DNA from: a virus
Lineage: Duplodnaviria; Caudoviricetes
DNA length: 38,278 nucleotides
IMG/VR virus record: IMGVR_UViG_3300042210_000077
Span: 1 to 38,278 of that record
Strand: one strand, 5' to 3'
This document shows, piece after piece, positions 6,483 through 38,278 of this stretch. The first letter of the stretch is position 1; every line of letters begins with the position of its first letter. The notes under the pieces are model-generated. The model saw nothing but the letters and a program-made list of their open reading frames with translations. It was not told the DNA's origin and searched no databases. Made by a program: the position numbers and the translations under genes.

Positions 6483-6640
6483 CCATGATCATCACTTACG
6501 AAAACAGCAGGTGGCTTGTCAACGGCAAGCGGCTGCAAGACCTCAACCACGATGAAGCCAACTTTTTGGATGACTTCTTCAGGGAAATGAAAAGAGAATT
6601 TGAAATAATCGAAAAAAACGAAAAACATGAACAAAATTAA
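6479..6640 (+). CDS. Small hypothetical protein (53 aa)
   Basis: ATGA overlap with the previous stop; translated by hand. Confidence 0.6.
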   Translation: MTMIITYENSRWLVNGKRLQDLNHDEANFLDDFFREMKREFEIIEKNEKHEQN

Positions 6641-6752
6641 AAAGATAGCAGCGTACATCTTGATGGGATTGCTGACTGCTTTGGCTGTCGTAGGCATTGC
6701 GATAATGATATACAATGTCATTTTTAACACCGAAAATATCACTTGGCCATGA
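6627..6752 (+). CDS. Small single-TM membrane protein (41 aa)
   Basis: MNKIKKIAAYILMGLLTALAVVGIAIMIYNVIF; stop overlaps the next ATG. Confidence 0.6.
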   Translation: MNKIKKIAAYILMGLLTALAVVGIAIMIYNVIFNTENITWP

Positions 6753-7057
6753 GAGTATATATAGCCGGCAAGGTGACGGGCGAACCGTTAGCGCAATGCA
6801 CGATGAAGTTTGGGCAAGCCCAAAAAATAATTGAAGGTAAAGGTTACGAGGCGGTCAACCCGCTCGCGCTGATCTACGATTACAAGGCAGGCCTCGGCAG
6901 AGAGGTAGAATGGAACGAGGCGATGAAAATATGCCTTATCAACCTACTCGCATGTGATGCCGTCTATGTGCTGAAAGACTGGGATAAAAGCCCCGGCGCG
7001 ATGTTAGAAGTATCGATCGCCGAAAAGTTAAAAATACAAATCATCCACGAAAAATGA
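6749..7057 (+). CDS. DUF4406-like protein (nucleoside 2-deoxyribosyltransferase-like fold)
   Basis: VYIAGKVTG, AVNP and CDAVYVLKDWDKSPGAMLE motifs. Confidence 0.85.
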   Translation: MRVYIAGKVTGEPLAQCTMKFGQAQKIIEGKGYEAVNPLALIYDYKAGLGREVEWNEAMKICLINLLACDAVYVLKDWDKSPGAMLEVSIAEKLKIQIIHEK

Positions 7058-7410
7058 AAGAAATAATCAAACGCTGGCTTATCGCCGGCACAGTCATCAG
7101 TTGGCTCATCGCCTTCGCCATCGCCGCGTGGCTGACCTATTGCGGCGACCTCTTCGCTTGGGACGACAACCGTTTCACAGCCATGTTGTTCTTTGCCTTC
7201 TTCCCGCCACTCTGCTGGCTCATTGCATCCATCGTGACGGCAGGCAACGATTATGAACAATGGGACAGGCACATCGAGCGGATCAAATGCCCGGCCTGCC
7301 TCAAGAATTGCGAGGCGGAAGTCATAAGGAGCGAGCCGTGGTATGTCTATATTCACGAGTGCGAACACTGTGGCTATTTCATCACTGAGAGCGAATGGGA
7401 AAGTGTTTAG
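7054..7410 (+). CDS. Two-TM protein with C-terminal Zn ribbon
   Basis: Two hydrophobic segments; CPAC...CEHC. Confidence 0.7.
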   Translation: MKEIIKRWLIAGTVISWLIAFAIAAWLTYCGDLFAWDDNRFTAMLFFAFFPPLCWLIASIVTAGNDYEQWDRHIERIKCPACLKNCEAEVIRSEPWYVYIHECEHCGYFITESEWESV

Positions 7411-7411
7411 G

Positions 7412-7618
7412 ATGGAAAATCTGATCCTAAACGATGTCGCCCGGTGCTGCAACCACCGCTGTGAAGCACGCGGGCAATGCCTGCGGTACCGCCAAGTGCC
7501 GATAGACAGGCTGACAGGCAATGACAAGTCGCCTGTGGTTCGGTTTGGCGAGCCCGCGAGCAAAGAGTTTTCAAAAAAATGCGGGCATTTCATTGGAAAA
7601 CATAAAAGAAAATTCTGA
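7412..7618 (+). CDS. Small Cys-rich protein
   Basis: NDVARCCNHRCEARGQCLRY...CGHF. Confidence 0.65.
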   Translation: MENLILNDVARCCNHRCEARGQCLRYRQVPIDRLTGNDKSPVVRFGEPASKEFSKKCGHFIGKHKRKF

Positions 7619-7675
7619 AAAATGGATAGCGAAGATAAAGCTTTTGATGAGGATTAATAACTAAACTTAACAAAA

Positions 7676-8008
7676 ATGGAAACAAAATTGATTATAAACT
7701 GCCTTAAACAAACGTTAACCGAATTAAGGGATGAAAAATACCAACAAGAGAAAAACGGACTTTATAAAGCAGCAATTGACTTTGTAAATATGCTAGAAGA
7801 AGCATTAATTATAGATGGTGTTAGCAACTGTGAAACAAAGCCAAAACTTAACAGATTGGAAACCGAGTTAGGTAAACTGCAAAAGGTACATGGTGAGACT
7901 ACTAAACATTTTGAAGTGCATAGCGGTTGTGATAGCTTTAAGTTTAAAGATGGTGCAGTTTACCGTGTGAAAATAGAAAGAAACCAAACAAAGGCAACAC
8001 TTGATTAG
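7676..8008 (+). CDS. AT-rich hypothetical protein reading through a GTTAGC core site
   Basis: 110 aa; GTTAGCAAC at 7820-7828 lies inside the ORF (GVSN). Confidence 0.7.
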   Translation: METKLIINCLKQTLTELRDEKYQQEKNGLYKAAIDFVNMLEEALIIDGVSNCETKPKLNRLETELGKLQKVHGETTKHFEVHSGCDSFKFKDGAVYRVKIERNQTKATLD

Positions 8009-8015
8009 TTTTATT

Positions 8016-8156
8016 GTTGCTAACGTTTAGTGTATCATTCAGTAAGGGATTGCGCGGCAGTTCCTGTCGAAATACACCAACGTTTGAGCGGATTACAAAC
8101 TTTTAATTATGCACTGAAACCCTTATTGATGATACACTTTGTTAGCGTTTCGTGCT
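8016..8156. repeat. attC-like imperfect palindrome (GCTAAC...GTTAGC)
   Basis: Left arm gctaac-gttt-agtgtatcattcagtaaggg pairs with right arm cccttattgatgatacact-tt-gttagc, with an internal bubble and an unpaired base. Confidence 0.75.
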
Positions 8157-8186
8157 TTATTTCAGATTATTAACAACTTAATTTAT

Positions 8187-8402
8187 ATGAGAACAGTAAC
8201 ATTTTTTGAAGAAGGGGATAAAGTGAAAATCCTTGAAGATTGGAGATATTGGAGAAAAGGTGAAATTGCAATTGTAGATAAAACTTCATGGGAGCGTGGA
8301 TTCGGCTCTAATCAATTTTTAACCTTAAAATCAGAAACAAATACAAAGGCAATGAATGATGTTAGAACGGTGTATGCGTATCTATGTGAGTTTGTTTCTT
8401 AG
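8187..8402 (+). CDS. Cassette-borne hypothetical protein (71 aa, KOW/SH3-like start)
   Basis: FEEGDKVKIL...GEIAIV; AT-rich; bracketed by inverted repeats. Confidence 0.7.
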   Translation: MRTVTFFEEGDKVKILEDWRYWRKGEIAIVDKTSWERGFGSNQFLTLKSETNTKAMNDVRTVYAYLCEFVS

Positions 8403-8447
8403 CATGAACGCTAACTAGTAAATATCACCAAAAACATATAAGTTTTC

Positions 8448-8588
8448 ATGACCCTCGATCAGGCCTACTGCCCACACCCGGAAGAGTTGCAACACATCGT
8501 TGTTGTATGGTCATGCGTGACCTGTGAAGTGACAGAAGTTGTCTGCGGGAGTTGCCGGAAAGTAATGGAAAGAAACGAAAATTATTGA
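8448..8588 (+). CDS. Small Zn-finger-like protein (46 aa)
   Basis: YCPH...CVTC...CGSC; translated by hand. Confidence 0.55.
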   Translation: MTLDQAYCPHPEELQHIVVVWSCVTCEVTEVVCGSCRKVMERNENY

Positions 8589-8738
8589 AATATGCTTTGC
8601 AAAAAAAAATGTCCAAGAGGAACGAGCCGCGACAGATACAATGTTTGACCACGATGTCTATGATATGAAGAGCGTAACAAGTGTCATGACAGAAGCTCTC
8701 TTGATTGATGAATTGCGATCAAAAAATAAGAGTAATAT

Positions 8739-8897
8739 ATGGAAAAAATAAAATATTTCGCAGTCACAGGCACGTTTCACGGCATGCTGATTGACGCGTT
8801 TAGCGAAGGAGATGCCCGGCGAGCCTTCCACGATCAATACAACGGCGAGAGCATCATTCATCTCATTCAGCGTGCATTACCGTCTTTCATGTCATGA
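8739..8897 (+). CDS. Small hypothetical protein (52 aa, MEKIKYFAVTG...)
   Basis: Stop overlaps the next ATG (ATGA). Confidence 0.55.
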   Translation: MEKIKYFAVTGTFHGMLIDAFSEGDARRAFHDQYNGESIIHLIQRALPSFMS

Positions 8898-9328
8898 CAG
8901 CCGAACAAACATACCGCAACCCCAAAGCCACTAAGGCGCAACTCCGAGAAGCCCTTCGCGTGGCTTTGGGCTTGCCTGAAGAACCCGCCGCCGCTCAGCC
9001 GCCGAAGAATGCATTTAAAGAATGTTTGAACACCTTTCAAACCGCCTATAAAAAGCAAACAGGGCTGCACTATCAGATAGCCGCCAAGGACGCGGTGGCG
9101 ATGGCGGGCATTATTAAGAAGTTGCAAGCCCTGGCACCGGGTGCCGACGTGGTAGAGTTGTTCACTGCCTTGGCGGCAAAGCTGCCGGAGTGGTACGTGA
9201 AGAATGCATTTAGCCTACCTGTTATCAATGGAAAGTTTAACGAGATTGTCGCCGCGATTCGGCAGTCTAAAAATCAAATAAACAATGACTATAAAGAGAG
9301 AATTGCCCGAGACCTTACCCGCCCCTAA
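8894..9328 (+). CDS. Hypothetical protein
   Basis: 144 aa; C-terminal FSLPVINGKFNEIV helix; coupled to the next gene. Confidence 0.7.
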   Translation: MTAEQTYRNPKATKAQLREALRVALGLPEEPAAAQPPKNAFKECLNTFQTAYKKQTGLHYQIAAKDAVAMAGIIKKLQALAPGADVVELFTALAAKLPEWYVKNAFSLPVINGKFNEIVAAIRQSKNQINNDYKERIARDLTRP

Positions 9329-9947
9329 CCCCTTCAAGGAGGGGAACATTATGCCGGTGGAGCAACAGACGCAACTCGTCAGGAGTTATCTGCCAGAGAA
9401 TCATCTTCCCGAGGTCAGGAAGATGACCGCCGTGGCGCAAGTGCTTGCCAAGGGCGACACCTGCACGGCCTTGTTGGCAAAGCAGGTGGGGACCAAACGC
9501 ATCGAGGCGTTGGTGAAGCTTTACCTCGTGCGCCTAAACGAGCTGCTCGACCTGAAGCGGCCACTCAGCGAGATGGCCATAGACGAAATAGCCGCTACGC
9601 TGATGACCGGAGCATACCGCAACCTGAGCCTCACAGACATTGCCTTCGTTCTGCAACAAGCCGCCCGCGGCGTGTATGGCGAGATGTACGAGAGCTTAAA
9701 CGTTACCAAGGTGATGCGCTGGTTCGACGCCTACTTCGACGAGCGCATAGCCACCGCCGAGCGGATGAGCGAAGCCGAACGCAGCCGGCACAACAGCATG
9801 CTCAACCGCTACCGGAGTAGCGAGCAGGACGAACAAGACCCGGGCTTTGCTGCTTTTAAAAAAAGCTACGAAACAGCTCAATTAAAGCAACGAGCAACTC
9901 AACGTAAGGCGACAGCTTCAGCAGCCAAAAAGCAACGCGAGAAATGA
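9285..9947 (+). CDS. Hypothetical protein, DUF6633-like (possible helicase-loader-like)
   Basis: LSLTDIAFVLQQAARGVYGEMYESLNVTKVMRWFDAYFDER motif; start uncertain. Confidence 0.65.
   Translation: MTIKRELPETLPAPNPFKEGNIMPVEQQTQLVRSYLPENHLPEVRKMTAVAQVLAKGDTCTALLAKQVGTKRIEALVKLYLVRLNELLDLKRPLSEMAIDEIAATLMTGAYRNLSLTDIAFVLQQAARGVYGEMYESLNVTKVMRWFDAYFDERIATAERMSEAERSRHNSMLNRYRSSEQDEQDPGFAAFKKSYETAQLKQRATQRKATASAAKKQREK
9317..9345. repeat. REP-like repeat, type B
   Basis: acccgcccctaaccccttcaaggagggga; 25/29 identical to 30522-30550. Confidence 0.75.
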
Positions 9948-10037
9948 AATTTTTGAAATTCATTTTAATAAAATTTACCGCAAGCTAATACTGCTGCATT
10001 TCAAAAGCAGTGACATGAAAAATTTTAAAATTTTGAT

Positions 10038-10280
10038 ATGATATCCGAACAAAAACTGAAAGAATTAGGCTTCCAAAAGACCTTTGGAAACACCCTCGAA
10101 GATGGCGATTATTACCAATGCTATGAATTAGTAAAAGGTGAATTCACAATTTGCTGCACGAACACGCACAATGGACAGACGAGAGTAGTCTTTCACCAAT
10201 ACTTCGAGCTCAACGGAGAAACCCTTTCTGGTGATTTTATGACTGCGGCGCGCTTGAGATCGCTAATAAAATTACTGTGA
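10038..10280 (+). CDS. Hypothetical protein
   Basis: 80 aa; ISEQKLKELGF N-terminus; AT-rich leader. Confidence 0.65.
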   Translation: MISEQKLKELGFQKTFGNTLEDGDYYQCYELVKGEFTICCTNTHNGQTRVVFHQYFELNGETLSGDFMTAARLRSLIKLL

Positions 10281-10301
10281 AATGTTAAAATTTCAAAAAC
10301 A

Positions 10302-10333
10302 TTTGGCGGTGTCATAAATGATACATATCTTTG
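10302..10333 (+). promoter_or_regulatory. Bacteroidota consensus promoter with overlapping palindrome
   Basis: TTTG (10302-10305), 20-nt spacer, TATCTTTG (10326-10333); GTGTCAT-aa-ATGATAC in the spacer. Confidence 0.7.
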
Positions 10334-10395
10334 GGTATTGAAATTTATTAATCATTAGACGCTGGCGGCAACAGCACAATACGGCAAGAGAAATT

Positions 10396-10692
10396 ATGAA
10401 AACTTTAATTAAAACAGACGAGTTTGGAAAAGTGACAAAAGCATTTTACACAGACGAGCAAAGTGCCACCGACGCTGCTAATTCATTCTTGAGAGATTGC
10501 AGAGTTCATGGATTGCAAAGAGACAAAAGATCTACTGAAATTGTTGATTTTGATTACCAAAAATATGGATTTTCAAAGATGCCAATTTTCGCCCAATTTG
10601 AGGCAAACAATTTGGGACTGTTTGTAAAAGTAGTATTCAATGGTCTTGGCAATCAGAGATTCACGGTTACAAATCAAGTAAATGAGCTATGA
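10396..10692 (+). CDS. AT-rich hypothetical protein (moron)
   Basis: Has its own promoter; lower GC than neighbours. Confidence 0.7.
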   Translation: MKTLIKTDEFGKVTKAFYTDEQSATDAANSFLRDCRVHGLQRDKRSTEIVDFDYQKYGFSKMPIFAQFEANNLGLFVKVVFNGLGNQRFTVTNQVNEL

Positions 10693-11002
10693 GATGAACC
10701 AAACCATCCCACAAAACGAGCAACAATGGCAGTTGCTCGTTTTGCTTTTAAAAGAGATTGCCGAGCAGAAAGGGCTTACGCAACAGCAGATTGCAGACGC
10801 ATCCGGCCTGATGCGTTCAAATGTGAACAGGCTCTTTGCCTTGAAGTTTCCGCCCAACATCAAGACCTTCTTGTCGGTGGCGCAGGCTGTCGGTGTGAAC
10901 TTCTACTTTGAAGACAAGGAGTCAAAGATTGATCTGAACATCGCCTTTGAGCGCGCGATGGAGAGCCTCGGAAGAAGGCCGGGTAAATTGCATAAAAACT
11001 AA
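10682..11002 (+). CDS. XRE-family HTH regulator
   Basis: KGLTQQQIADASGLMRSNVNRLF...PNIKTFLSVAQAVG. Confidence 0.85.
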   Translation: MSYEMNQTIPQNEQQWQLLVLLLKEIAEQKGLTQQQIADASGLMRSNVNRLFALKFPPNIKTFLSVAQAVGVNFYFEDKESKIDLNIAFERAMESLGRRPGKLHKN

Positions 11003-30582: not shown

Positions 30583-33500
30583 ATGGCAAAAGTAAGTTTA
30601 ACGACGATTAAAAATTGGTTTAAAACAGGTTTGAAGCCTACTCAGGCTCAGTTTTGGGATGTGTTCGACAGCTTCCGGCACAAAGACGATGCTGTGCCTG
30701 CGGCTGAGGTGAGCGGGTTGGACTCGTTGCTTGTGCAAAAAGTCGAAACGAGCCACTTGACCGATCCTAACGCTCACAATATTGATAACATCCCTGTCAC
30801 GTTCACCACCACTGCAACGGATAAAGATTCCTTAGCCGTTTGGCTAAACGCCCAAACCCCACCGATTGAAATAACCGCCAATCAGATACCTGAATGGGAG
30901 TTGATAGATGGAACAAGATACAGATTTGAAAACAAAGGAAAAGGCATTTATGGCGTTGGGCAAACGCAAGTTGTGGCTAAAGATTTCAAACTCGTTTTGG
31001 ATGGCGCAAAAACACTCGAAACCATAACCAGACCGGGGATTTACCCGCTTTGGAATGTCGTTTTAGACAACGTACAAAAGATAATCAACGGCGAAGAATC
31101 CGGATTCGTTACGAATGTAAATGAAGAATTGAAAGTTTCGAGCATCGAGATTCATAAAAAAAATAGAGAAATAGGTTACGGATTTGATTTGATTAATTCG
31201 GGGAATGTTGTGTTTTCTGTTGCAGAGCTAAACGCTTTTCCACATTCGGACGGGACTACCGTTTCGGTGAGTTTCGCATCCACTACCTATCTGTATGCAT
31301 CCGATACCGGTCAATGGATTTTGATTGGAATTTTTACGGCTATTTCCAACACATTTGCGGAAATAGTTCAGGAAGCAGAGTACGCGACCGTGCCAAAATC
31401 GACCAGTCCGGATTATGGACTGATTGCAGTCACTCTTGATAAAATTGTCACCACCACTAATGGAGAGTTGAGCGACGCGGATAACGTTCAGATTGATTTA
31501 ATAAAAAGTTTCTCGATATTTCCAACCTCTGTAATAGCGGTTAAGAATAGAGTTATCGGTAACGATGACATCGTTTTTTCTAAGAAAAAGCTGAACGACA
31601 TTTATGTGAAAGTCATAGCCAACGATGTTAACCATTTCGATTTCAACTTTGATTACAGATATTTCAGCTTTACCGGAAACACAATTTTGAAAGAACGCCG
31701 AACATTGATGCTGAACGAATTGGATTTACTCAAAGCAAACGAAACAGGTGGGCTTGTTTTGACAGCTATTTCCGGTAATCTTGAAGGCACAATCGAGGGA
31801 GTGACTGGCGAGGGTGATAAGTTTACCGAGCCTTTGCAAACAGTTTTTGACAACACAACCAATGAGATGATGGTTGTGAACGCCATCTTACAACGTGACG
31901 ACATCACACAGGTGACAATTACTGCTGTGGGTAATGATGCAACAGATAGGACTTCTTTTGCTACTGTCACAGGAAAAAAAGTTGTAATTTCAGATACTGT
32001 CGCCGCCCACACGGATAAGTTGCACCAATGGTTTAATTATGGCCACGATTTCGTCATGCCGTTTGAGGATACCTTCATCGATACGGTGACAGACATCGGG
32101 ACTGAATTGCAAGGAAACAACATATCATCCTACGTAAAAAGAAATGGCGGACACATGAGCCTATCCGCGATAGTAGGAAAAGAGATACAATCGACAGAAA
32201 ACATAGACGCGGATGTCATACACGTCACGGCTTCGGGGGCTAATTCACCAATCAGGATAGATTGGACAAGCGGTGACAAAGCCTTTCGTCCAAACCTCGT
32301 CATAGTAGGCGCTGGGCTTGAATCAGACTTAGACGCGAATTGGCAAACATCCTTTGGCTTCGGCATGGAATTTATCGAACCTACCTCGGTTAGTACAGTT
32401 CCAGACATCCCTTTAGGCGACACCGAACCTGATGTGCATCAGCAGTCCCCTGCTACGGCTATCGTTGCCGGTAAGTTGAGGGCAATAAAAGAATCTGTTC
32501 CGAATGCCACTTGGCAACAGGTAAGATTAGCGGCACGTGCGACAGCAACTCGAGCAAATCAATGGGACATGTATCGCGGATTCGGCGTCATCGACACAGC
32601 TGCCGCTATTGTCCAATTGAGATTAGACGTTGAAAGAGATTCGTTGGTCAAAGCCAATATTTATAACCGTAACAATAAAATTGCGAAAAGCATAGACTTT
32701 CTCAAAATCAGTGAAGATGCGCCGGTAGCTAAAAGGCACATCGCGTCTTTAGGCTTAGTCGTCGCTGATGACATGGTCAACAAAGCCGTTGCTATCATGA
32801 AGGATGACGGCGGTTTTATAGATTTGAAAGGCGATGTAGCGGGGTTTTATAAAACAAAATTTTTAAAGCAATCGATAAAAAGATTGCATGAAAACGAAGA
32901 ATTGGCAAACTTGACGGCCGTTTTTCTTCCGGAAGCGAGTAAGACAGGAGGCAAATTATACAACTTACTTAATGCCGCCATTCCAACTCATTTCTTTTTG
33001 ACGAGAAATAGCGTGAAATACGGTCATCGAGAGAGCTTGAAAATAGTAGAGTTTTCAGCTAACGAACCGGCTATTGACTATCTGAATGGGTTTCCAGAGC
33101 TGATAGTTGAGCCGCAACGGACAAATTTAGTTTTGAACAGCGAGCCAACAGCTAATGAAGCGGCAGCAAGTGCAGGAGTAACCTATCAAAGCGTTGCCAA
33201 TCCTTTCGGGTTCGCAAGTTTTGTAAAAATACCAAAAACGGCATCCTCAGAGTTCAGATATGGAGCAACAGCAGCCAATGACGGTTGGCACAAACAGCAA
33301 TTTTACTTTTTTGTCGAGGGCTATAATTTGCAGCTTGACCAAGGGAACACCACAGCTGATAAAGTCTATGATTTAGTCACAAGAGGCAACACCTCCTCGT
33401 CTAAATCAGCAAGACTTAACGCAAACAATCGGATAAATAGAAACTTTGTTTTTACCTCTGTAAATGCTGATTCGGAGGGTTCCACAAACACAGGCAACAA

Positions 33501-33882
33501 TGGTCTGATTGTTCGCAATACCTCAATCAACAATGATGGTGTAACGTATAGCGGTATTATGCTTGAAGCGTCAACAAAGACAAGTTTTGCAGGCAGTTAT
33601 ATACGCACAACGGGAGCGACAAAAACAGTCAACGCAGACGTGTTTACAATTAGCAACCTTTTAGCGGATGGGCTTATAAGTACAACGGAAGGCACTATAA
33701 TTGAACGTGGAAGCAATCAAGAGGTGAGGACTGTTTGGACAGGGGGTAATAGATTGAAATTCATTGATAATGCCTTAATTTCAACAGTAGCAGAAGTACC
33801 AAACGACAACCCTTTTACGCTTGACACATCGAGTTACAGGTTGAGTGAGATATTAATTTCTGATAAGGCAATTTTTCCATGA
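30583..33882 (+). CDS. Large mosaic tail/virion protein with central subtilisin-like domain
   Basis: N-terminal IKNWFKTGLKPTQAQFW anchor; S8-like motifs at about aa 460-675; C-terminal LIVEPQRTNL and SYIRTTGAT fibre motifs; more AT-rich than neighbours. Confidence 0.8.
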   Translation: MAKVSLTTIKNWFKTGLKPTQAQFWDVFDSFRHKDDAVPAAEVSGLDSLLVQKVETSHLTDPNAHNIDNIPVTFTTTATDKDSLAVWLNAQTPPIEITANQIPEWELIDGTRYRFENKGKGIYGVGQTQVVAKDFKLVLDGAKTLETITRPGIYPLWNVVLDNVQKIINGEESGFVTNVNEELKVSSIEIHKKNREIGYGFDLINSGNVVFSVAELNAFPHSDGTTVSVSFASTTYLYASDTGQWILIGIFTAISNTFAEIVQEAEYATVPKSTSPDYGLIAVTLDKIVTTTNGELSDADNVQIDLIKSFSIFPTSVIAVKNRVIGNDDIVFSKKKLNDIYVKVIANDVNHFDFNFDYRYFSFTGNTILKERRTLMLNELDLLKANETGGLVLTAISGNLEGTIEGVTGEGDKFTEPLQTVFDNTTNEMMVVNAILQRDDITQVTITAVGNDATDRTSFATVTGKKVVISDTVAAHTDKLHQWFNYGHDFVMPFEDTFIDTVTDIGTELQGNNISSYVKRNGGHMSLSAIVGKEIQSTENIDADVIHVTASGANSPIRIDWTSGDKAFRPNLVIVGAGLESDLDANWQTSFGFGMEFIEPTSVSTVPDIPLGDTEPDVHQQSPATAIVAGKLRAIKESVPNATWQQVRLAARATATRANQWDMYRGFGVIDTAAAIVQLRLDVERDSLVKANIYNRNNKIAKSIDFLKISEDAPVAKRHIASLGLVVADDMVNKAVAIMKDDGGFIDLKGDVAGFYKTKFLKQSIKRLHENEELANLTAVFLPEASKTGGKLYNLLNAAIPTHFFLTRNSVKYGHRESLKIVEFSANEPAIDYLNGFPELIVEPQRTNLVLNSEPTANEAAASAGVTYQSVANPFGFASFVKIPKTASSEFRYGATAANDGWHKQQFYFFVEGYNLQLDQGNTTADKVYDLVTRGNTSSSKSARLNANNRINRNFVFTSVNADSEGSTNTGNNGLIVRNTSINNDGVTYSGIMLEASTKTSFAGSYIRTTGATKTVNADVFTISNLLADGLISTTEGTIIERGSNQEVRTVWTGGNRLKFIDNALISTVAEVPNDNPFTLDTSSYRLSEILISDKAIFP

Positions 33883-34424: not shown

Positions 34425-34567
34425 GGGTAAAAGAACCCCCGACTTTGCCGCCTTCTAATCTCACTCGGAAGGCGAACAATAAAGGTGCACAAACACCAAG
34501 CCGAGGGCAATGCCTTTAGCTTTTGGTGTTTGTGCACCTATTTTTTTTGAGTGAGACGACAAATTTA
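34424..34567 (-). ncRNA. Putative structured antisense RNA / attenuator leader of the dam-TS operon
   Basis: 16-bp perfect stem 34483-34498/34524-34539; additional long-range pairings; minus-strand TAAATTTG -7 box at 34567-34560. Confidence 0.6.
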
Positions 34568-34582
34568 TTAAATAAAAACAAT

Positions 34583-35386
34583 ATGGAACTAAAACCAAGA
34601 ATGAAAACGCCTATCAGCTACTACGGCGGCAAGCAGATGCTTGCGAAGAAGATCATCAATGCCATCCCGGCGCATAACCTATATTGCGAGCCGTTTTTTG
34701 GCGGCGGCGCGGTGTTCTTTGCCAAGGAGCGCAGCAATGTGGAGGTGGTGAACGACACCAACAGCGAGCTAATCAACTTCTATCGTGTTGTGGTCACAGA
34801 CTTTGAGGCACTCAAAGCGATGACAGAAGTTACGCTGCACAGCAGGGATGCTTACAGGCAGGCCACGGTGATGTACAACCATCCGGACATGTTCAAGCCT
34901 GTGCAAAGAGCTTGGGCGGTTTGGGTATTAAGCAGCCAATCGTTTGCATCATCCTTGGAAAATAGTTGGGGCTTTTCGGTAGCAAGCTGCTCCACTCCAA
35001 AGAGGGTGATGAACAAGAAAGACAACTTCACAGACGAGCTGAAGCGCAGGCTTGACCTTTGCACTTTCGAGAATACCGATGCCATCGATGTCATTAAGCG
35101 TTTCGATCGTCCGGACAGCTTCTTTTATCTTGATCCGCCTTACTTCAACTCCGACTGCGGACATTATGATGGCTATAGCGCGCAGGACTTCACCAATCTA
35201 CTTGATGCCTTGGCGGGCATCAAAGGGAAGTTTCTGCTTAGCTCTTATCCGTCCAAACTTCTGAAGGAGTACATCGGCAGATACAATTGGCATTTTTGGA
35301 CTACTGAGAAGAAGGTCAGCGTAAACGCCAAAAGCGGCTATCTGAAGGCGAAAACAGAGTGTCTAACCTCAAACTATCAATTATGA
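34583..35386 (+). CDS. DNA adenine methyltransferase (Dam/D12 class)
   Basis: YYGGKQ, EPFFGGGAV, VVND and FYLDPPY motifs. Confidence 0.92.
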   Translation: MELKPRMKTPISYYGGKQMLAKKIINAIPAHNLYCEPFFGGGAVFFAKERSNVEVVNDTNSELINFYRVVVTDFEALKAMTEVTLHSRDAYRQATVMYNHPDMFKPVQRAWAVWVLSSQSFASSLENSWGFSVASCSTPKRVMNKKDNFTDELKRRLDLCTFENTDAIDVIKRFDRPDSFFYLDPPYFNSDCGHYDGYSAQDFTNLLDALAGIKGKFLLSSYPSKLLKEYIGRYNWHFWTTEKKVSVNAKSGYLKAKTECLTSNYQL

Positions 35387-36024
35387 ATAAGCATCATGAA
35401 ATTTTAAAGAAAATCATCGAAAAAGGCAAGATTCAACGCAACAAGAAAGGTTCAATCCGCTACCTGCTCAACCAAGTGATAAGCCTTAAGCCAATAGACC
35501 TGCTTGAGCTGTTTGAGGAACACGGTTTAGCCCGGAAGAAGCTGAAAGACGAGCTGAAGCTTTTCATGCTCGGAGAACGCTCCACGGAAGCCTATAGAGA
35601 GGTCGGCGTAACGTGGTGGGACTATTGCGGCCCTATTTTAGTGAACAGCTACCCAACCTACTTTGAACAGTTGCCAAAGCTGATAGAGAAGATCAATAAA
35701 GAGCGGCGTACTTCTAAGAACTACGTTCTCTTCCTTGGTGCCAACAATACCGAGACAAACCAACAGCCTTGCCTAAGCCTCATCCAATTCCAAATAGACA
35801 ACGGTAAGCTCGTTGTCACAGCCTATCAGCGTAGCTCTGATGCTAACTTGGGTTTGCCTTCCGACATCTACCACTTGTATCTCATTAGCAAGCAGATACA
35901 ACTACCCTTGAAGGGCATCACGCTGTTCATTGGCAACGTTCACATCTACGAGAACAACATTGAAGGAACTGAGGCGTTATTGAGTGGTGCGGAGGGGGTT
36001 AGATTCGCTTTAAACGTAGTCTAA
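35383..36024 (+). CDS. Thymidylate synthase-fold enzyme, short, with dCMP-type Asp
   Basis: QPC catalytic Cys, YQRSSDANLGLPSD and GNVHIYEN motifs; 213 aa; ATGA overlap with the methylase stop. Confidence 0.88.
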   Translation: MNKHHEILKKIIEKGKIQRNKKGSIRYLLNQVISLKPIDLLELFEEHGLARKKLKDELKLFMLGERSTEAYREVGVTWWDYCGPILVNSYPTYFEQLPKLIEKINKERRTSKNYVLFLGANNTETNQQPCLSLIQFQIDNGKLVVTAYQRSSDANLGLPSDIYHLYLISKQIQLPLKGITLFIGNVHIYENNIEGTEALLSGAEGVRFALNVV

Positions 36025-36025
36025 A

Positions 36026-36074
36026 TGTACAATTTGATTTTAGAAAGTGTATAATTTGATTTTTTGATTATACA
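36026..36074. repeat. Prophage right end: two transposase-binding repeats and terminal CA
   Basis: tgtacaatttgatttt (36026-36041) and tgtataatttgatttt (36048-36063), 22 bp apart, then ...attataCA. Confidence 0.75.
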
Positions 36075-38278
36075 GGCAAAATTTTATTTTTTTCTTCATC
36101 AATGTATGTGATTTCAAAATCGTGTCTGCCTAATAATTGAGTTGCAATATATAATCCAAGTCCTCTTCCTTGCATACCCTTAGTTGAGTAAAATGGTTCG
36201 AAAATATAAGGTTGGTCATCAGCCTTAATACCTGGGCCATTATCAGCAAAAATCACTTTTGAATTTTCTTTATCAATTTTTATTGCAATCTCCTTATTTT
36301 CAGTATCAATTGTTTTTAACCAATAAATTGAATTGTCCAAAAGGTTAATGAAGGTTTGAAGCAAAACTGCCTCTGTGCAATTGACTGTAAAATTTTTTCC
36401 AATTTCTTCAACAAGGAAAGCAATATTATTCTCCTCTATAACTCCCTCGTAATATCTCTTTACATCGTTAATCACCACAATGATTTTTAAATCTTTACTC
36501 TGTCTTTTTGAAGACCTGAATATCGGCTGTATACCTTCAATTTGACTTTCTATGTAATTAATTTGACTGTGCAGTTTTTTGAGATTAGCATTCAAAATTT
36601 TTGGGTCGTAATTTTTTGATTCTGTCAATTCAATTACAGAACCTAAAGTTGCGTTTGCTCTTTGCATCATCATCATTAAATCATGTGATGCTGCTTCAAC
36701 AGCAATACCAACTGCTGCCAAATCTTCCGTAATTTCCGCTCTGTCTTTAAGATACTTTTTTTCGCTGATGTAGTTTTTGTAAATAACATCAAAAACCTTC
36801 GCGCCTTTTGAATCTTTTCTTTCAGTTAAATATTCTCTGAAACTTTCAAATTGATTCTGTGTGACAGATTCTTTAATCAAAGTAATTTTATTTTTTGCCT
36901 CAACTCCAAATCTGTATTTCTTGAATTCGTTTAATAGTAACCCAAGTATTCCCTGAATGATTGATTTGAAATCTTCAAAAGCATTTCCTATTTCTAACAA
37001 TCCTTCTCTATTTGTTTTGTCTTTAAGATTTGGGTTGTTTTCTGTTGAAATACCAATGAAACCTACAGTCTGGTCATTACTCAAATAATCTCCGGCGCGT
37101 CCTGTACCTCTTAAAATATCAACTTCCAACCAATCATCAACTTTATCTCCATAAGGAAAAACTCTCAATCCATCCCTGTACAAATAAATTCTATTGTTCT
37201 TAATGATCCGTTTTTCGTCAGTAAGCAACTTATATTTTATCGGAGCCTGATTAGTTAAGTCGTAAATATGAAACTGAAAAGTGAACTCCCCACACTCAGG
37301 CAGTCGCTTCATGCTTCTTCTTCCAGTTGCACAAAATCTTTTTCTGAACTCTTTTATTTCTAACAACCTTTCAAGATTTAATTCAATTACTGAGCCGTTT
37401 ACTTTGTAAGAAATCTTATTTTGCCCATCATATTTCCCATCTGTAATCTTAACGGGGGCTTTTGTCTGAAGTATTGTTAGCTCATTAGTGTAATCTTTGT
37501 CGTCCTTAAATTGACTTTCACCATTAACCAAAATTTCACAAATAAAAGTGTCGGTTTTTTTTGTGGTTACAGGATTATTAAGTTTTGAAATATCTGAAAG
37601 AATTGTCTCAATTTTTTCAAATGACCATTCACCTCTTAGATTGGTTATTCTGATTAGCGTTCCATTTGACACTCTCTTTTCTAACTTGCCTTTTATTAAA
37701 ATATTCTTCTCTACTATATCAATCGGTTTTATTCTTTTTTCATACAAATATTCTATTTGGTCAAGGTATTTGGGTGTAGATTGTTTTTTATCATCCTGAA
37801 TTAGTTCATCATCAAAAGCAGAAAGATCATTGATAAGAAGTATTTCCTTTTCATTCTTCTCAACAGATTTTGTCGTGAGTTCAATCGTAGTTCCCAACTT
37901 GTAAACAGCAAACCGACCAATCCCTTTTTCACCTTGGATAATTCTTTTCTTCTTAGTTAAATTATCACCTTCTTGCTTCTGAATAAATTTGTTTGGAGTA
38001 GCTGGGTTTAACCAGACATTTTCAATTGTGTTAAATGACATCCCTATTCCGTCATCTTCAATTTCAATACAAGAGTTTTTGTTTTTGATAAGTGTATTTT
38101 CGTCCTTATCAACTGTGAAATTTTTGAACCTAATCTGCACCCAATTGGCATCTGCATCATAGGAATTCTTTATCAACTCAATTAGGGCAACTTTCTCATT
38201 TTTTATGAGTTGGTCTCCTATCATAGTTAGAAGCCGTGCATAAGCCCTCGGTTTTAATATTCCTTTATCGTCTGCCAT
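36068..38278 (-). CDS. Host GHKL (MORC/HSP90-like) ATPase fused to histidine kinase; C-terminus clipped by the prophage
   Basis: ELIKNSYDADA, DDGIGM and GEKGIGRF; then ASHDL, NLLDNS, DNGPGI and GRGLGL; the stop codon lies inside the prophage end. Confidence 0.85.
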   Translation of the reverse strand: MADDKGILKPRAYARLLTMIGDQLIKNEKVALIELIKNSYDADANWVQIRFKNFTVDKDENTLIKNKNSCIEIEDDGIGMSFNTIENVWLNPATPNKFIQKQEGDNLTKKKRIIQGEKGIGRFAVYKLGTTIELTTKSVEKNEKEILLINDLSAFDDELIQDDKKQSTPKYLDQIEYLYEKRIKPIDIVEKNILIKGKLEKRVSNGTLIRITNLRGEWSFEKIETILSDISKLNNPVTTKKTDTFICEILVNGESQFKDDKDYTNELTILQTKAPVKITDGKYDGQNKISYKVNGSVIELNLERLLEIKEFRKRFCATGRRSMKRLPECGEFTFQFHIYDLTNQAPIKYKLLTDEKRIIKNNRIYLYRDGLRVFPYGDKVDDWLEVDILRGTGRAGDYLSNDQTVGFIGISTENNPNLKDKTNREGLLEIGNAFEDFKSIIQGILGLLLNEFKKYRFGVEAKNKITLIKESVTQNQFESFREYLTERKDSKGAKVFDVIYKNYISEKKYLKDRAEITEDLAAVGIAVEAASHDLMMMMQRANATLGSVIELTESKNYDPKILNANLKKLHSQINYIESQIEGIQPIFRSSKRQSKDLKIIVVINDVKRYYEGVIEENNIAFLVEEIGKNFTVNCTEAVLLQTFINLLDNSIYWLKTIDTENKEIAIKIDKENSKVIFADNGPGIKADDQPYIFEPFYSTKGMQGRGLGLYIATQLLGRHDFEITYIDEEKNKILPV

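Follow-up and report, generated by a model that had tools for sequence, protein, structure and literature searches.

How do two small, AT-rich genes come to be bracketed by repeats like those of integron cassettes in a prophage without a tyrosine recombinase? We study this question in a stretch of 38,278 nucleotides (positions 1 to 38,278 of IMG/VR record IMGVR_UViG_3300042210_000077, hereafter the window), a provirus record with a CheckV completeness of 96%. A PHROG scan of the 52 ORFs in the window identifies a Mu-type transposase, a transposition protein, and head, contractile tail and lysis genes, and finds no tyrosine recombinase among them. PF00589 has 0 matches in the record, where 14 of 14 control genomes are positive, and the window holds no integron integrase in cis. 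The cassette locus sits amid small early genes of the prophage, with a GC content of 32-35% compared to 50-52% in the flanks, and we infer a Bacteroidota host from where its cassette ends occur.

An initial annotation of this DNA had read the locus as two cassettes captured with the help of an integrase supplied in trans. Mobile integron-like gene cassettes are indeed what we find, although two complete ones are not, since the first is truncated. An outside source of recombinase is still needed because the window encodes none; the IntI type is not what we find associated with such arrays, where the recombinase is Xer-like. The reading we favour, and consider probable while giving real weight to its rivals, is that the locus is the end of a small array, in which an intact cassette, flanked by an older, clipped one and by a likely docking site, would have been inserted by an Xer-type recombinase from the host or another phage. 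The features are collected in Table 1; we refer to the hairpin that opens a cassette as its head and to the part carrying the rest of the gene as its body.

Table 1. Features of the cassette locus, in positions of the window.
Feature	Position	Strand	Basis or remark
Truncated hairpin head: loop (with ORF1 start) and right arm	7651..7822	+	phage DNA replaces left arm
ORF1, 110 aa	7676..8008	+	loop-derived N-terminal 48 residues plus 62-aa cassette part
Cassette 1 body	7820..8023	+	complementary ends 7820-7839 / 8005-8024
attC-like hairpin, head of cassette 2	8019..8146	+	folding, detector, relatives' covariation
Cassette 2, intact mobile unit (hairpin, body and ORF2), 391 bp	8024..8414	+	identical copies in X12, X13
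Body 2 left end	8141..8156	+	end pair common to many unrelated genes
ORF2, 71 aa	8187..8402	+	4 homologs at 73-93%
Body 2 right end	8401..8415	+	complementary to 8141-8156; terminates at AA/C junction
Likely docking (attI-like) site, one mismatch	8412..8431	+	matrix search
Docking site plus ~20 bp, common to unrelated contigs	8415..8450	+	loose ends beyond 8441, 8446, 8450 in X7, X10

Elsewhere in the window, the right end of the prophage carries a Dam-type methyltransferase and a thymidylate-synthase-like gene (34523-36024) 3' of the endolysin gene, an ORF of 1099 aa (30583-33882), flanked by the tail fibre and endolysin genes, has no PHROG or Pfam family, and a 144-aa ORF contains a 16-bp inverted repeat (94%) around a 28-nt loop (8916-8975). 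An AT-rich histidine-kinase-like gene at 36068-38278 is probably host DNA flanking the prophage. Eight distant loci of Mu-like relatives show no convincing hairpin, with matches at noise level only, and no close relative in the metagenome scan spans the locus (L005 and L006 begin downstream of it).

The hairpin and its relatives

The letters and coordinates of the initial annotation are all correct, and the hairpin and both inverted repeats that it described are real. The first repeat is longer than had been noted, pairing 16 of 20 nt (7820-7839 with 8005-8024), and the second (8141-8156/8401-8415) pairs with one bulge. The + strand of 8010-8160 folds at -20.5 kcal/mol (z -3.27, with 2 of 200 shuffles as good) and the - strand at -18.8 kcal/mol (z -2.42), and the bubble has 5 unpaired nt on the AAC side against 3 on the GTT side. 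Our detector finds a single hairpin site in the window, with a score of 13.7 at a threshold of 11.5; this score is reached in 0 of 30 block shuffles (best 12.8), of which 9 gave a match at the threshold. An alignment of 25 related hairpins shows 98% pairing over the inner 18-bp stem, and 14 of its 18 pairs vary on both sides; the structure was taken from those same 25 sequences, for which slid controls are 30-45% paired. Each unit had been described as bracketed by its own inverted repeat; there is one complete hairpin, as 7820 lacks a left arm and 8415 lacks a right arm. IntegronFinder defines an integrase-less attC cluster (CALIN) by at least two attC sites (PMC9024848), so that one complete hairpin falls short of that number.

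Similar elements occur elsewhere. A two-arm pattern search returned 4 viral loci, one of them with several consecutive hairpins, and in L019 an 86% identical head is carried by another gene. The comparisons of heads and bodies below use 435 oriented hairpins in 125 loci, kept from 460 after hairpins in unoriented loci or with a non-oriented strand had been removed. A blastn search of the window hairpin against 50,697 GenBank phages returned just one 28-nt chance match. The same cassette end is found in chromosomes titled Bacteroidota in 52 of the 80 matches listed, counted by eye. Taken at the level of sequence, these occurrences support an integron-like system that is widespread in Bacteroidota chromosomes and phages, in keeping with the cassette route for this phylum that had been suggested.

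The family shares the core of an attC site, with AAC and GTT closing the folded strand and an excess of G:T pairs on one strand, and differs from it in its unpaired bases. Its bubble measures 5-6/2-3 nt and no bulge is conserved. The extrahelical base reported for the window is a T that is present, on the AAC arm, and is missing from 22 of 25 aligned relatives, so that it is not a conserved feature. Over the 435 hairpins, 248 need no bulge, 137 have one on the AAC arm and 48 on the opposite arm, with 2 ties; extrahelical bases conserved on the arm opposite AAC, as an integron site would have them, are not found in the family.

Could the hairpin instead act as RNA, serving small phage genes as a leader, a processing site or a terminator? 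G.U pairs and covariation would suit RNA equally well, and the strand that folds also carries the gene in phages: of 234 viral units, 229 have their longest ORF on the AAC-first strand (3 further viral units had no ORF, and the count leaves aside 172 hairpins elsewhere and the window's own, which have no matched end). Of 23 chromosomal units, however, 20 have the gene on the opposite strand, yet G.T pairs still outnumber A.C pairs by 136 to 10 on the AAC-first strand (a set picked with wobble credit). In 559 stems, detected without wobble credit, the numbers are 787 and 90. Since the excess sits on the AAC-first strand in both viral and chromosomal loci, the fold is tied to the DNA strand and not to the mRNA. 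An Rfam scan of 7000-11000 gave no family, with two sub-threshold matches elsewhere in that stretch, no terminator-like site was found, and an RNA role would leave both the pairing of body ends and the docking site unexplained. We give the RNA reading next to no credence. Because the strand of an attC site that recombines is the one with more G:T pairs (PMC5027507), the + strand is, by analogy, likely to be the folding and recombining strand of the window hairpin. Compared to classical integrons, the direction of the cassette gene is reversed in the viral loci and in the window and classical in the chromosomal loci. As to a promoter that would read into the array, like Pc of integrons, a sigma-70 scan gives 5 sites where 4.4 are expected, under a model that excludes Bacteroidota promoters.

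Unit boundaries and the exchange of heads

Where are the borders of the moving unit? The initial annotation placed insertion at G/TTAGC on the + strand, with units of 7821-8141 and 8142 onward, and head-body joins at GTT do exist; in one pair of loci (L207/L218) the upstream body and head are the same and the downstream body differs. To locate the borders we compare contigs of four sequencing runs with 6500-10500. A 446-nt contig in X12 contains 8021-8416 with 0 differences and 24-26 foreign letters on either side, a 397-nt contig in X13 contains 8021-8415 with 0 differences, and further X13 records have loose ends at 8021 and 8415. The unit is thus found unchanged with foreign flanks in 2 of the 4 runs, which are other metagenomes and come from two studies; the sequence beyond 8415 in this comparison resembles the starts of other hairpins. 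Identical copies with breaks at 8021 and at 8415/8416 mean that the moving unit consists of a hairpin and the gene downstream of it, bounded by AAC, so that the unit runs between AA/C junctions (8023/8024 and 8414/8415) with the hairpin before the gene.

The same association is seen in other loci. L001 and L004 have a hairpin and its downstream gene in common and differ in their neighbours. Among 18 hairpin pairs with a common downstream body, 9 have the same head, 1 a partly similar one and 8 unrelated ones, compared to 1, 2 and 17, respectively, among 20 pairs with a common upstream body end; the pairs are not independent. Of 282 cases, 212 show perfect pairing between the 5 nt 3' of GTT and the unit's own body end, whereas the hairpin's AAC side is their partner in just 8 of 435. 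Complementary ends of the cassette body, a property of integron cassettes, are therefore present here, and this is the difference expected if the body ends close a hairpin in a cassette circle. With heads that stay with the downstream body, identical copies that run from 8021 to 8415/8416, and no hairpin following 8415, the polarity that makes G/TT on the + strand the main crossover is largely refuted, and we regard it as very improbable. The main crossover would instead lie at AA/C on the + strand, which is G/TT on the minus strand. The position of the cut within the invariant AAC cannot be placed from sequence, and AA/C is adopted here from IntI (PMC5027507).

Cassette 2 shares its end pair with many other genes. 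We find this pair around 39 distinct bodies in other loci, in which the gene is sense in 12 of 12 viral cases and antisense in 25 of 27 chromosomal cases. ORF2 itself has no Pfam, NCBIfam or PHROG family, and its closest Atlas clusters are unnamed viral proteins. When 8141-8175 is compared with L012, L019, L021, L034 and L152, the common left end reaches ~30 nt into the AT-rich leader; a common leader of this length ahead of unrelated genes suggests gene replacement inside fixed ends. Six chromosomal loci (L043, L055, L057, L064, L102 and L106) hold cassettes with the ends of cassette 2 and bodies of 663-680 bp, and their ORFs of 114-115 aa are putative PemK/MazF-type toxins of toxin-antitoxin systems, as judged from the first 35 residues.

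Cassette 1 has lost part of its head. In intact heads of ~190 nt (L173, L204) the left arm is followed by GGATTAATAACTA and then by the start codon; the window retains GGATTAATAACTA from 7651 onward and has no left arm. No AAC that could pair with the right arm at 7820 is found at threshold in the 1.5 kb upstream (best 10.4 against 11.5), and the match to a related phage ends at 7652. Given the missing left arm and the end of this match, cassette 1 is likely locked in place. An unrelated viral contig (L246) confirms this anatomy in DNA: it holds a homolog with an intact long head of a different kind, the same body ends and a different neighbour.

The truncated head nevertheless encodes the start of a protein, raising the question of how ORF1 was assembled. 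ORF1 has no family in PHROG, NCBIfam, Pfam or Atlas. It has 23 homologs that share its C-terminal part, and in 22 of 24 ORF1-type proteins the junction is the Val of an in-frame GTT codon, upstream of which we count 19 unrelated N-terminal groups; the N-terminal part of ORF1 also occurs with other C-termini among 17 matches. At the DNA level, 8 pairs have the same body and an unrelated head with the break at GTT. Across the family, 92 of the 232 ORFs in sense orientation have their start codon within the head, and in 60 of these the GTT is in frame (the first-Met rule may overcall such starts). Nineteen unrelated N-termini joined to one body at a GTT codon point to a second, rarer exchange at G/TT, which would exchange heads less often than whole cassettes are exchanged. 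The proposal of G/TT as a + strand crossover thus fails for the main junction and survives for this second, less frequent one. We also considered a head swap by full double strand exchange, which predicts that the 3-nt spacer before GTT moves with the body; in the printed pairs it follows the head, as seen by eye, and we put this route aside.

The loop of many heads supplies a start codon and 10-70 residues, so that these exchanges might amount to a natural, site-specific protein-fusion machine common to Bacteroidota and their phages. An Xer-type recombinase without the I2 helix would act on folded single-stranded sites of either strand, with docking at AA/C and head swaps at G/TT, and the window phage would tap it through an orphan docking site. 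We put this forward as a tentative proposal, which we think may well be wrong.

The docking site and the array-linked recombinase

What would a cassette dock onto? The initial annotation paired 8401-8415 with 8141-8156 as the repeat around the second unit; no right arm or hairpin follows 8415, and this third site is better described as a likely docking site. Our evidence comes from other viral contigs, beginning with a recombinase found behind a six-hairpin array in L036. A scan with this protein confirmed 221 viral stretches, and docking sites were counted on 80 of these. In 69 loci the recombinase match is preceded, at a distance of at most 140 nt, by a motif that starts with TAAC, where the conservation also starts; in the other 11 of the 80 the pattern missed the motif, some of these being truncated or one base longer. 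The recombinase loci thus resemble integrons in where the docking site lies, by the recombinase 5' end and at the end of the array. Hairpins lie upstream in 49 of the 57 loci with at least 1 kb of upstream sequence (248 upstream versus 11 downstream), and 276 are on the same strand as the recombinase versus 7 on the opposite strand. Read from the other strand, the phage layout is the integron layout: a recombinase pointing away, a docking site, and cassettes. The link between recombinase and array is one of gene neighbourhood.

A matrix trained on 50 distinct recombinase-adjacent sites, from which the window was excluded, gives 8412-8431 the top score on both strands of the window, with 18.5 bits compared to 9.4 for the next. 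Where 95% of the training sites have T, the window has A. The matrix also scores 17.2 bits within a gene of the AT-rich phage P12002L, so that the score alone is no proof of a docking site. No recombinase lies behind the site in the window; an exact search of viral contigs with its 17-mer gave 5 loci, all judged to be chance and with hairpins absent, and a 23-mer search of metagenome contigs gave 0. In the three cases shown from X7/X10, the window's docking site is preceded by the identical body end with a different gene, an end that elsewhere occurs at 2 of 276 recombinase-locus hairpins. Free docking would vary that end, and its constancy in these cases counts against free docking. No cassette circle or empty docking site of this phage was seen. 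The present-day activity of the window's docking site is doubtful; it may be weak or dead.

These observations give substance to a rival reading, in which the locus is a frozen copy of a real system: 7651-8450 would have arrived ready-made by illegitimate recombination, with a dead docking site and genes that change through homology of the body ends. In its favour, the left joint at ~7652 cuts within a head and the right joint at ~8450 lies beyond the docking site, and the mismatch and the recurring body end ahead of the docking site fit as well. In two contigs these two ends enclose 206-207 different letters, and one end pair flanks dozens of unrelated genes. On the other hand, copies of cassette 2 with other flanks match it over 395-396 nt without a difference, hairpin included, and the match breaks off at the AAC triplet on each side, which marks a recent arrival with site-specific borders. 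We consider the frozen copy unlikely overall, and still the rival that deserves most attention.

Returning to insertion by an outside recombinase, we can outline the steps by analogy with IntI. The + strand would fold as single-stranded DNA, and in a cassette circle the two body ends would pair to close the hairpin. The recombinase would cut at AA/C and join the circle to the docking site, such that the newest cassette adjoins the dock. With the phage gene pointing away from its hairpin, the cassette could be read from the early operon. Occasional use of the other strand would lead to exchange at G/TT, by which old bodies would receive new heads together with the N-termini that the head loops encode; such use may be expected of hairpins that lack conserved extrahelical bases, as assays of IntI show that loss of these bases favours the other strand (PMC5027507).

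The array-linked recombinase is Xer-like and not an IntI. It is ~266 aa long (263-269 aa in most loci), scores 150 bits against TIGR02249 (cut-off 265) and 174 against the XerA model (cut-off 220), and its closest structures by sequence are XerA 4a8e (E 4.6e-35) and 5hxy (E 3.5e-29). At the place where VchIntIA has 88 residues it has 40, and the spacing of 54-56 residues between two motifs is constant in 73 of 73 relatives, such that the IntI-specific insertion (the I2 helix) is absent. This helix is described as the acquisition from which IntI derives its single-strand activity (PMC7790495; its role is also covered by PMC8138268). All 5 of 5 Bacteroidota-titled genomes with the same cassette end encode a relative at E<=1e-30, a set that may include ordinary Xer proteins. 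In 4 of these, opposite-strand hairpins lie at most ~1.2 kb downstream, two of them with a dock-like sequence. Host-genome relatives with nearby hairpins and dock-like sequences make supply in trans to the window phage plausible. In chromosomes L249, L250, L251 and L253, the related recombinase is often within a longer open frame, and the array lies past its 3' end on the opposite strand, unlike the phage layout.

Comparison with known systems

A rival account, taken from reports on other phages, is a normal attC cluster without integrase on which a true IntI acts. Qi et al. 2023 describe 17 such clusters in phages, including Polaribacter phage P12002L, from which two sites were chosen for assay and treated as IntI substrates (PMC9892861). 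The AAC/GTT core, the G:T-rich folded strand and the placing of the docking site by the recombinase 5' end all resemble integrons, and attC2 of P12002L was recombined by IntI1 (PMC9892861). Its attC1, however, a member of our family by the detector, is the single one among six sites that IntI1 failed to recombine (PMC9892861). Along with the bubble of 5-6/2-3 nt, the lack of a conserved bulge, and a recombinase that is below the TIGR02249 cut-off and has 40 residues in place of the 88 of VchIntIA, this makes service by a true IntI a very unlikely explanation. In P12002L, attC1 is one of 11 coding-strand detector matches, with 2 on the other strand; these 11 hairpins lie on the minus strand of 30055-45835 (L247, NC_028924), several of them ahead of DNA methyltransferase genes. 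The phage clusters of Qi et al. are like the window in having attC-like sites without an integrase in Bacteroidota phage, and differ in that the parts of that paper covered here describe no dedicated Xer-like recombinase, docking motif or head swapping (PMC9892861). Our search of full-text literature, with subscription papers mostly outside its scope, found no description of the family of recombinase, docking site and hairpin.

If the Xer-like recombinase recombines these hairpins, single-stranded cassette recombination would occur without the I2 helix that is thought to define IntI. In that case a large phylum with few recognised integrons (IntegronFinder 2.0 lists very few in Bacteroidetes; PMC9024848) would have its own cassette system, in common with its phages. 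One end pair that frames dozens of unrelated genes, in sense in phages and antisense in chromosomes, bears on the origin of cassettes, and in-frame head swaps would create new fusion proteins through site-specific recombination. The window locus is a small orphan example with two genes, and its special value lies in its clean boundaries and its head-swap fusion.

How close is this system to those already known? Xer proteins act on double-stranded sites. By sequence, simple Xer-type recombinases (XerA) are the closest structural relatives of the array-linked recombinase, whose neighbouring substrates would instead be folded hairpins and a docking site. With integrons, above all the sedentary chromosomal ones with their homogeneous attC sites, the system shares cassettes of one gene, a folded single-stranded site with an AAC/GTT core, a central bubble and a G:T excess on one strand, complementary cassette ends, one head type common to many genes, and a tyrosine recombinase that faces away from the array and has a simple docking site at its 5' end. 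It differs from integrons in the ~266 aa recombinase without the IntI insertion, in a bubble of 5-6/2-3 nt where aadA7 has ~6/5 (PMC9892861), in the missing conserved extrahelical bases opposite the AAC arm, and in phage genes whose direction is opposite to the classical one and whose start is often within the hairpin. The locus works like the end of an integron, and it stands apart from integrons proper in its lack of an integrase in cis, of the I2 insertion, and of the extrahelical bases.
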